Program-made: the position numbers
Source: Pseudomonadota bacterium
Lineage (GTDB): Bacteria > Pseudomonadota > Gammaproteobacteria > DASZBR01
NCBI GenBank assembly: GCA_021777765.1
Contig: JAJYDF010000001.1
Coordinates: 13,151 to 77,150 of the forward strand
Direction: 5' to 3'
Length of the DNA: 64,000 nt
Shown here: in pieces, positions 33,001 to 36,000 of the stretch
How positions within the stretch are numbered: position 1 is the stretch's first letter
Layout: each line of letters begins with the position of its first letter

Positions 33001-36000
33001 GTGATTTCGCTGCTAAAGCTTCGGGTTGGCAAATATCATGTAGTGAACAATGTTTGCAGCGTGCATCATTAACAGCAGGAGGTATTATTTTGGACGAATA
33101 CATATTGCGGATATCTTTGATAATTTTTTCTAATTCATTGCGTAATAGTTCATTTATTTTTACGACACGTCGATGATTTGAACTGCAATGAAATATTGCA
33201 CCTAAAGGAATAGCTTTTCCTAGCATTTCTTCTAAACAAATTGCTTGTGCAGCTAATTGCAAATCATCATGTAATTTTTGTCGTTTGGGGCCATATTTAT
33301 ATTCTACTGGATATGGTGTGCCGTCTTCTAAAAATTCCACAGCATCTGCTTTGCCAATTAATCCTAATCGTTCAGAAAATAACGGGAGAGCATAAACTAT
33401 TTTTTTATTGCTTATTATATTTTCATGTGGTTCGTCAACACGACGATGAGCAAAATTACCACGTTGAGTATCGACGTTGTTTTTGAATTCTTGTTCAACG
33501 TAAATGAGTGCACATTGTCGTGGGCAATAACTATAATGTTCTATTGCCGAAATCATAATTAATAATTCATTACTCTCTTGCATGATTAACCTACCATGCG
33601 AATTAAACTCACTCCTGAAGGTAGATCGGCATCATTTATATCGAATTCATAATCTAAAATATTTCGTGCTACTACTACATCATTTTTGCGTGTGATTTTA
33701 ATTCTATTAAATAATTCGTGTGCTGGTGCGTTGCCTAGTTGATTATCGTGCTTAAATATATAAAGGCCGCGTGTATTCATTTGTCCACGTGCTGCAGAAT
33801 GATCATGTTCAAACATGTTTTTCAAAGCATCCCAAAATAATTGTAAATCCTCTTCAGTAAAATTTGTTTGATTAGCTAGAAATGCGGAAATAAATCCGTG
33901 AGTACGATACAAACCATAAGGGATGGTATTTTTTCTACCCATAGTTTGATGAGGTGCATCTGGTTTTTCATCTTTTTCATCAGTTATGGCCATACGAGTT
34001 ATAGTGTGTTCGAGTGCGACGACCGGATCAATACTACGAGCAAATGTTAATTGCACAGGTCCTCGAACTTGACCGCAATTTGCACCTGTGGACATAACAG
34101 CACCGAAAGTTCTTACATCATAAAAATTTTGACACATCCATAATTGTGCTTTATCAACATTTTCTCCGCTTTGCCGTTTTTTTGTTTGTTTCGACAAATC
34201 AATATTCAATGCCTGATAAGCTCTATCAAGTGTTTTATTAAGTATGGATTTTTCTTTAATAAATATTTCATAAGGTGGTTTTTCTTGTTTCAGAATTGTA
34301 ATGTAATTGCGAACTTTGCGTTTTAAACAAACATCTGTTGTGATCCCTTGCCCTGTTTCTGGGTCTAATCTGGGTAAATTCCCTGCATCTGGGTCACCAT
34401 TTGGATTTCCATCCGCAACATCAAATAATAAAACGAAATCGTATCTATTTTGAATAATCATGATAAATCTCCTTGTAATTTAGTATCAGATTTAGTGTAA
34501 AAATATTGCATTTGGTGATAATAACCAATTGCAAATCGTCCTTGATCAGGTAGAGATAAAACAGATGGAAAGTCTTGAAAATTATTTACTATTTCACCAA
34601 TTAATTTTATTAAATTAACTTTTCGTCCATTGTTAGTTAATTGTGATAAATGGTGATTATTAAGTTTTATTAGATTTGGAAACACAACTATTGGCGTGCT
34701 TGAGGCGGCACCATAATAACGATCACATATACTTGCATTTAAATCTCCTAATGCTTCGTTTTGCGTTTTTTCCAATACGGCAAATAATCTACCTAATTGA
34801 TACCCAATATTTTGGTTTGTTGTGCTGAGTGACATGAGATTCTCCTTTTCTTGTGCGTTTATTTTGCTAATAGATCGAGTAATGATGGCTTTTAATAATG
34901 CAACCCTTGCATAATTCACTTTATGTACTGGATGTTTTTGGTCTTCGGTATGAGCTGCACGAATTCTGCGCAATGTGGATTGTAATAAAATGTGTGGATA
35001 TTGAGTTCCTTTCAATATACTTTGCATTGTTTCTGCTATTAAATTTGGAGGAACATTTTTAATATCATTTTGTAGCGCTACTGCTGATAACAGTTGATAA
35101 AGTGTTAAATATTCAGGTTGTTTAATGCTATGTGTAATTTTAATATCATCAAAATGTTGACGAATATTTTTTGCTAATTCGGCAATAGGGCAAACGTGCC
35201 AAAAATTGATTGCTATACGTGATACATTAGGAGTTAGCCCAAGCACAAAAAATTGCGTTTTGTTTTCATCAGAAATAAAACCATCGCCAGTAAGTGGTTT
35301 TTTATATAATGATTCAACGGCTTTAACGCCAGCATCAGGATCATCAGTTTTGTCATCAGTTTTCTTGAAGTTCCGAGAAAATAATTCACCTAAGATATTT
35401 TCCATGTCATCTTGTTTCGCTGCCCAGAATACAATGGTAGTTTCACCAAATAATATTTTTTGATTTGAGGATTTTTCCAGTAATTTATTTAATGCGGTTG
35501 TATATGCTTCTGAAGCTGGAATGCTAATAGGCGCATTTTCTCCTTGTTTTTTATTGAATGAACAAGCGGCATCAAAATTATAAGAGACGATATTTGTACC
35601 GGATGGTTGGCCAAAGGCTAAACCTTTAATGTAAGGATGTAATCGCGCTATTTCTCCGGGTTCGCCGGTTATTAAGCAGGTATGTAAATTATTGTGAGAA
35701 TTATTATGCTGATCTTCAATAACTTTTTGTATTATTTCTCTATGACAAACAAGTTCTGTGTCATTTAATAGTTGAAATGCAATAGCTGAAGCAGGATTAC
35801 TAATTTCAGGCCATAAAGGATGTTGGTGTAAAGTATCTAGTTGACCATTTTTTAAAATTGATAAAACGGCATTAACACCAATGTCTGATGGTAGATTTGA
35901 AAAAGTATTAATTATATTATTTTCAAAAGCGAGTTTTCTTTGAGCTGCTTTATGTTCATCATTTTTTTTATCTAGTCCAAAAATGTATGGTGCATAATCC

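Follow-up and report, generated by a model that had tools for sequence, protein, structure and literature searches.

The 3′ quarter of cas8c in the genome of an uncultured gammaproteobacterium very probably holds a second gene, cas11c, nested in frame within the large-subunit gene of a complete type I-C CRISPR-Cas operon. The stretch that we analyzed, hereafter the window, comprises 64,000 nucleotides (nt) of contig JAJYDF010000001.1 (assembly GCA_021777765.1, forward-strand positions 13,151 to 77,150), and all coordinates given below count from its first letter. The nested open reading frame (ORF; 34458-34835, minus strand) runs from an in-frame ATG at 34833-34835, which encodes Met469 of Cas8c and is the proposed Cas11c start, to the TGA at 34460-34458 with which cas8c itself ends. 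It spans 126 codons including the stop and would encode a product of 125 amino acids (aa) beginning MSLSTTNQNIGYQLGRLFAVLEK. An earlier note on this DNA had proposed such a product, co-terminal with Cas8c, and its length, the start of its peptide and the shared TGA are all borne out by the sequence.

An internal ribosome-binding site in cas8c

Upstream of the internal ATG lies a Shine-Dalgarno (SD) sequence, AAGGAGA (34841-34847, minus strand), built from the Lys-Glu codons AAG GAG together with the A of AAT; on the minus strand the surroundings read GCA CAA GAA AAG GAG AAT CTC ATG TCA CTC AGC, in the cas8c frame. The earlier note had placed motif and start codon correctly, in coordinates and in frame, and erred in the distance between them, which it gave as 7 nt: the gap from the heptamer to the ATG is 5 nt (atctc), and that from the GGAG core is 6 nt. 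Gaps of 5 and of 6 nt both fall inside the usual optimal SD spacing.

We scored SD strength as the energy of the duplex between the anti-SD sequence 5′-ACCUCCUUA-3′ and positions -20 to -4. The internal site reaches -8.7 kcal/mol, against a mean of -0.68 at the other codon positions of cas8c, and is the strongest anti-SD pairing inside the gene, equaled at no other codon position; leaving aside the start of cas8c itself, none of its other in-frame ATG, GTG and TTG codons reaches an SD energy of -8.0 kcal/mol. Across the 53 gene-like ORFs of the window, an SD as strong as the internal one precedes 13 of 419 in-frame ATGs, 11 of which stand at, or a few codons from, ORF starts, leaving two deep in a gene, with the cas8c site among them. 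The same heptamer, AAGGAGA, also serves the starts of cas5c and cas7. The second deep internal ATG with strong pairing (56594-56596, plus strand; codon 325 of 494 in the ORF at 55619-57103; -9.7 kcal/mol) stands in the context GTGGGGGTAAGC ATG, and its pairing is probably due to chance, because it is G-rich and relies on G:U pairs.

Codon usage and mRNA structure also set the site apart. Lys is written AAG in 13% and Glu GAG in 14% of cases in the genes of the window, and in 6% and 9.5%, respectively, in the cas genes, AAA and GAA being strongly preferred; the sampled genes of the window contain 63 Lys-Glu pairs, of which just one is spelled AAG GAG, and that one is the internal SD itself. The mRNA from -30 to +30 around the start (61 nt) folds with a predicted energy of -1.6 kcal/mol, compared with a gene mean of -6.4 ± 2.5, which places this stretch (51% A) among the 2.5% least structured windows of the cas8c mRNA. 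An Rfam search of the whole window gave no match, with no riboswitch or small RNA at the site and no rRNA. Scanning 34300-36500 for promoters yielded 7 promoter-like sites where 10.9 were expected, and for terminators none, so that there is no hint of a separate cas11c transcript. The internal SD and ATG of cas8c look selected rather than accidental, and both the SD, as the strongest of the gene, and the size of the product fit the internal-translation mechanism that the earlier note had invoked.

Conservation of the internal start across cas8c homologs

We then compared the site with 80 cas8c loci from many phyla, fetched by an alignment-based scan of genome contigs. A first pass parsed 59 loci, giving 60 genes together with the window's own, and a looser pattern added 11 for a total of 71; the nine loci that stayed unparsed even with a looser GRLF-type motif were left out. 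Every one of the 71 parsed genes, 70 of them from other genomes and one from the window, has ATG or GTG at the codon aligned with the internal start or at its neighbor. Within the 60-gene set, 17 genes have ATG and 28 have GTG as the aligned codon, and the other 15 carry ATG (14) or GTG (1) one codon downstream. At the protein level, the Met469 column of a 50-homolog alignment holds Met in 25, Val in 24 and Ile in 1, and 48 of the 50 carry a Glu three codons 5′ of the start codon. The aligned Val codons are GTG in 28 of 28 genes, whereas only 35% of the other Val codons in the same genes are GTG (joint p about 6e-15).

The SD is widespread: GGAG occurs within -20 to -4 in 53 of the 60 genes, its distance from the start being invariably 6 or 9 nt, and duplex energies have a median of -8.7 kcal/mol, compared with -2.5 for the background. 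All 11 loci recovered with the looser pattern have ATG or GTG at the site, with duplex energies from -7.4 to -12.3 kcal/mol. The C-terminal products predicted for the homologs measure 114-140 aa (median 125). The closest two relatives, 71% and 56% identical, retain GAA AAG GAG NNN NNN ATG exactly while the adjacent codons vary.

The loci with a displaced start form a class of 15, made up of 13 'P-M-L-D' loci (L019, L025, L034, L035, L037, L038, L042, L049, L062, L074, L077, L078 and L079) together with L036 (ATG) and L060 (GTG). In the 'P-M-L-D' subclade, mostly Betaproteobacteria-like metagenome-assembled genomes, the aligned codon encodes Pro and Met follows one codon downstream ('F-x-P-M-L-D'). 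GGAG in the shifted-start subclade always lies 9 nt before the start, and the SD pairs more weakly, with a mean of -8.1 kcal/mol over the 15-locus class. The Cas11c start of this subclade has moved by one codon yet is still a start.

Predicted fold and annotation of the nested product

Searched against the PDB with phmmer, the 125-aa fragment matches Cas11 of Neisseria lactamica (8g9s_H, 124 aa; E 8e-34) and Cas11c of Desulfovibrio vulgaris (7kha_K, 124 aa; E 1e-22). Met1 of the fragment aligns with Met458 of N. lactamica Cas8; its residues 4-5 fall on residue 4 of the D. vulgaris chain, which is residue 493 of Cas8c, and Met1 therefore corresponds to D. vulgaris Met489. Both of these methionines are Cas11c N-termini defined by experiment, and in the solved type I-C Cascades the matched Cas11 chains are modeled separately from Cas8. 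An AlphaFold2 model of the fragment, based on a 50-sequence alignment, has a mean predicted local distance difference test score (pLDDT) of 88.3 and a predicted template modeling (TM) score of 0.83, with five helices (residues 10-29, 36-46, 48-64, 69-83 and 95-118) and a disordered tail. Foldseek searches of the PDB with this model gave TM scores of 0.87/0.88 to 8g9s_H and 0.85/0.91 to 8dex_J, and superposition on 8g9s_H, 8dex_J and 9jhb_B gave TM scores of 0.85-0.91 with root-mean-square deviations of 1.5-2.1 Å; all PDB chains scoring below E = 1 were C-terminal domains of type I-C Cas8 proteins or Cas11c chains. The Cas11 helical bundle anticipated in the earlier note is thus what structure prediction returns.

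NCBIfam, Pfam and PADLOC contain no stand-alone Cas11c model, and the sole matches of the fragment in them are to the C-terminal end of models for Cas8c; because Cas8c models are all that these libraries offer for the region, the nested gene escapes annotation, and the public gene calls at the locus list only the 593-aa cas8c. In that sense the earlier note rightly called this Cas11c 'hidden', a word that holds for annotation and profile libraries and does not hold for the phenomenon, which has already been published.

The type I-C operon

We took a type I-C system to consist of cas8c/csd1, cas5c and cas7c/csd2 with cas3, cas4, cas1 and cas2, lacking cas6 and a separate cas11 gene. Seven cas genes, each above its NCBIfam cut-off, follow one another in canonical order on the minus strand. 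The operon begins with cas3, encoding an HD nuclease and helicase (37061-39283; TIGR01587, TIGR01596; these coordinates are ORF limits, and the database gene call is 734 aa), followed by cas5c (36236-36898; TIGR01876, E 1e-58), which has the SD AAGGAGA at its start. The host gene of the nested ORF, identified as type I-C cas8c in agreement with the earlier note, encodes the 593-aa large subunit Cas8c/Csd1 from an ATG at 36239 (34458-36239; TIGR01863, E 9e-157). An automatic ORF list has it as 34458-36263, beginning at a TTG at 36263; the true start is the ATG at 36239, which is preceded by the SD GAGGAGA, and an identical 593-aa protein (P0001) is found in the NCBI, ENA and Logan assemblies. 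Downstream of cas8c lie cas7c/csd2 (33586-34461; TIGR02589, E 7e-118), with its ATG at 34461-34459 and an SD of its own, AAGGAGA at 34474-34468 (-8.5 kcal/mol), cas4 (32942-33583; TIGR00372), cas1c (31923-32957; TIGR03640) and cas2 (31630-31920; TIGR01573).

The genes are tightly packed. Stop and start codons overlap as ATGA between cas5c and cas8c (36236-36239) and between the common end of cas8c and cas11c and the start of cas7 (34458-34461, minus strand), and cas4 and cas1 share 16 nt (32942-32957). Through the latter ATGA overlap, cas7 is translationally coupled to the gene before it. The nearest relative of this Cas8c is 71% identical, and at full length most database relatives are only about 48-50% identical, placing the protein in a fairly isolated lineage.

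A proposed route to two proteins from one gene

In the mechanism that we propose, ribosomes starting at ATG 36239 of the cas operon mRNA would produce full-length Cas8c, and other ribosomes would bind the internal AAGGAGA, initiate at ATG 34835 and produce a five-helix protein of 125 aa (about 14 kDa) identical to the Cas8c C-terminal domain. The internal start would allow one gene to yield two proteins in unequal amounts, with free Cas11c made in excess over full-length Cas8c. On the model of the solved D. vulgaris Cascade, two copies of Cas11c would lie along the 'belly' of the complex, adjoining the C-terminal domain of Cas8c, in an assembly of seven Cas7, one Cas8c, one Cas5c and two Cas11c, and the pair would help to hold the R-loop. 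By homology, we infer both this stoichiometry for the Cascade of this organism and the R-loop-stabilizing role of its predicted Cas11c.

The internal start might further provide a means of tuning stoichiometry, and of feeding cas7 as well, a hypothesis that we regard as speculative and rather doubtful. Ribosomes completing cas11c would end at the ATGA overlap, with the second AAGGAGA just upstream, and could re-initiate on cas7, so that a single mRNA would give a graded output of Cas8c < Cas11c < Cas7, roughly 1:2:7. Bearing on this idea of cas7 coupling, the cas8c-cas7 junction in the two closest relatives (L084 and L085) has a 3-nt gap in place of the ATGA overlap. The three forms of start seen among the homologs could set lineage-specific Cas11c:Cas8c ratios: an ATG with GGAG at a distance of 6 or 9 nt, a GTG spaced in the same two ways, and a start shifted downstream by one codon, nearly always ATG, for which the spacing is always 9 nt.

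Alternatives to internal initiation

Even taken together, the rivals to internal initiation seem to us improbable. One of them, which deserves little credence although it is the least weak of the three, holds that amino-acid constraint on the linker and C-terminal domain of Cas8c gave rise incidentally to the SD-like heptamer and the Met, that no separate protein is made and that the Cas8c C-terminal domain alone is the small subunit, the view held before 2020. The motif is indeed encoded by a conserved E-K-E / K-E-E peptide, and GA-rich Glu and Lys codons mimic an SD automatically. Amino-acid constraint does not, however, predict a codon choice that opposes the bias of the genome (AAGGAG at 1 of 63 Lys-Glu pairs) or an aligned Val that is GTG in every one of 28 genes when 35% would be expected; a column holding Met, Val (GTG) or a Met shifted by one codon fits a start codon and not a structural residue, and the local mRNA is unusually unstructured. 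Moreover, orthologous sites initiate translation experimentally, and Cas11c appears as separate chains in cryo-electron microscopy structures.

Still less probable is that the internal SD acts mainly on elongating ribosomes, causing a pause for domain folding or for cas7 coupling and not recruiting ribosomes. The site does sit at a domain boundary, immediately ahead of helix 1 of the C-terminal bundle, and cas7 is coupled translationally by the ATGA overlap. Pausing requires no start codon, yet every parsed homolog has ATG or GTG at the site, and GGAG, where present, keeps a fixed 6 or 9 nt; SD-induced pausing is itself disputed, and it would leave the free Cas11c chains of the solved complexes unexplained. 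We give the lowest probability, a very slight one, to proteolytic cleavage of Cas8c as the source of a C-terminal fragment of ~14 kDa. Proteolysis was earlier proposed for a Cas8b fragment (cited in bioRxiv 10.1101/2020.04.18.045682), but it would exert no selection for an SD or a start codon, nor for valines written only as GTG or for open mRNA, and reporter fusions of orthologous regions drive translation (bioRxiv 10.1101/2020.04.18.045682).

Some considerations do weigh against a nested cas11c. Initiation at ATG 34835 in the source organism is something that we infer by analogy with orthologous systems. The conserved E-K-E / K-E-E peptide could be constrained at the protein level, which would explain part of the GA-richness of the site, though not its codon choice. 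As the 3′ end of the 16S rRNA lies outside the window, a canonical anti-SD was assumed; the gene starts of the window do use GGAG-type SDs, consistent with that assumption. Finally, plain GGAG is missing in 7 of the 60 homologs, two of which, L068 and L070, have weak SDs, so that the SD is not universal.

CRISPR array and genomic surroundings

Beyond cas2 lies a CRISPR array (30324-31447, minus strand) of 16 repeats in total, 15 of them identical and 37 nt long and the last, at the cas-distal end (30324-30360), degenerate; the spacers measure 34-38 nt. The minus-strand sequence of the repeat, GTTGCACTCATTTTAATTAATGAGTGAGGATTGAAAC, contains an AT-rich stem of 8 base pairs and ends in ...ATTGAAAC. 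Its 37 nt exceed the ~32 nt typical of type I-C repeats. An ORF at 30086-30493 (plus strand) extends into the array and is probably spurious.

The surroundings of the cas region are chromosomal: clpB, recN, an fnr-like gene and a major facilitator superfamily (MFS) transporter flank it at one end, and hrcA-grpE-dnaK-dnaJ together with ftsH at the other; the cas operon (31630-39283) and its array lie between the fnr-like regulator and MFS transporter and the hrcA-grpE-dnaK heat-shock locus. Two large proteins with eukaryote-like domains are encoded at 4757-7468 (minus strand) and 14956-17544 (plus strand), a 903-aa protein with an N-terminal U-box (E 1e-9) and an 862-aa protein with ankyrin, Sel1, TPR and LRR repeats. 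Adjoining these effector-like genes are ORFs at 7598-9475 (plus strand, 625 aa) and 17660-19261 (plus strand, 533 aa), neither of which has a Pfam match at E <= 1e-4. The eukaryote-like domains, the 34% GC content of the window and the recN...hrcA-grpE-dnaK-dnaJ neighborhood together suggest an intracellular, Legionellales-like host.

Comparison with known systems

The feature is textbook for type I-C: both the mechanism and the family have been published, and the window adds a further, unannotated instance. McBride et al. (2020) showed that in type I-B, I-C and I-D systems the small subunit is translated from an internal in-frame start within the large-subunit gene, as the earlier note had stated, and that D. 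vulgaris Cas11c starts at a highly conserved Met489 (bioRxiv 10.1101/2020.04.18.045682). The Cascade described by O'Brien et al. (2020) contains seven Cas7, one Cas8c, one Cas5c and two small subunits, which line the positively charged path that the non-target strand follows; for D. vulgaris it is also known that efficient interference requires this subunit (PMC7684278), and in the solved D. vulgaris and N. lactamica structures Cas11c holds the non-target DNA strand of the R-loop. N. lactamica Cas11 is likewise a small ORF hidden in cas8c, whose product's C-terminal domain covers aa 458-582 (bioRxiv 10.1101/2023.08.05.552134).

The window product most closely resembles the N. lactamica protein (8G9S chain H), which at 125 aa from Met458 of the 582-aa Cas8 is equal to it in length; the start methionines align exactly, identity is 54-55% over 118-119 positions, the five-helix fold predicted here superposes with TM scores of 0.87/0.88, and the operon is of the same type. 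The two differ in that the window comes from an uncultured bacterium of 34% GC whose neighboring genes encode eukaryote-like U-box and ankyrin proteins, in that its repeats are 37 nt long and in that its Cas11c is a prediction from sequence. D. vulgaris Cas11c (7KHA, 8DEX) is also encoded by an in-frame nested ORF, of 124 aa, co-terminal with cas8c and served by an internal ribosome-binding site, and Met1 of the window product matches residue 1 of its chain, Met489 of Cas8c (TM 0.85/0.91); here identity is about 40%, and the window stands apart in having a perfect AAGGAGA in an AT-rich context. In systems with other large-subunit families, Cas11d (within cas10d, type I-D) and Cas11b (within cas8b, type I-B) are small subunits that also arise from an internal in-frame start (bioRxiv 10.1101/2020.04.18.045682; PMC11899642), and they probably share no detectable sequence similarity with the window product. 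Cse2 (type I-E), Csa5 (type I-A) and Cmr5/Csm2 (type III) are likewise helical-bundle small subunits that line the belly of the complex (PMC7684278), but they are encoded by separate genes, and Foldseek gave them no significant match to the window model.

The window therefore leaves the understanding of type I-C unchanged and contributes one more case, with clean codon-level evidence, to an established rule. Its practical consequence concerns reconstitution: the N. lactamica and D. vulgaris systems needed cas11c as a separate gene when rebuilt in eukaryotic cells (bioRxiv 10.1101/2023.08.05.552134 for N. lactamica), because bacterial internal initiation fails there, and rebuilding the system of this window, notably in eukaryotic cells, would call for cas11c (34835-34458) to be supplied as a gene of its own in the same way.

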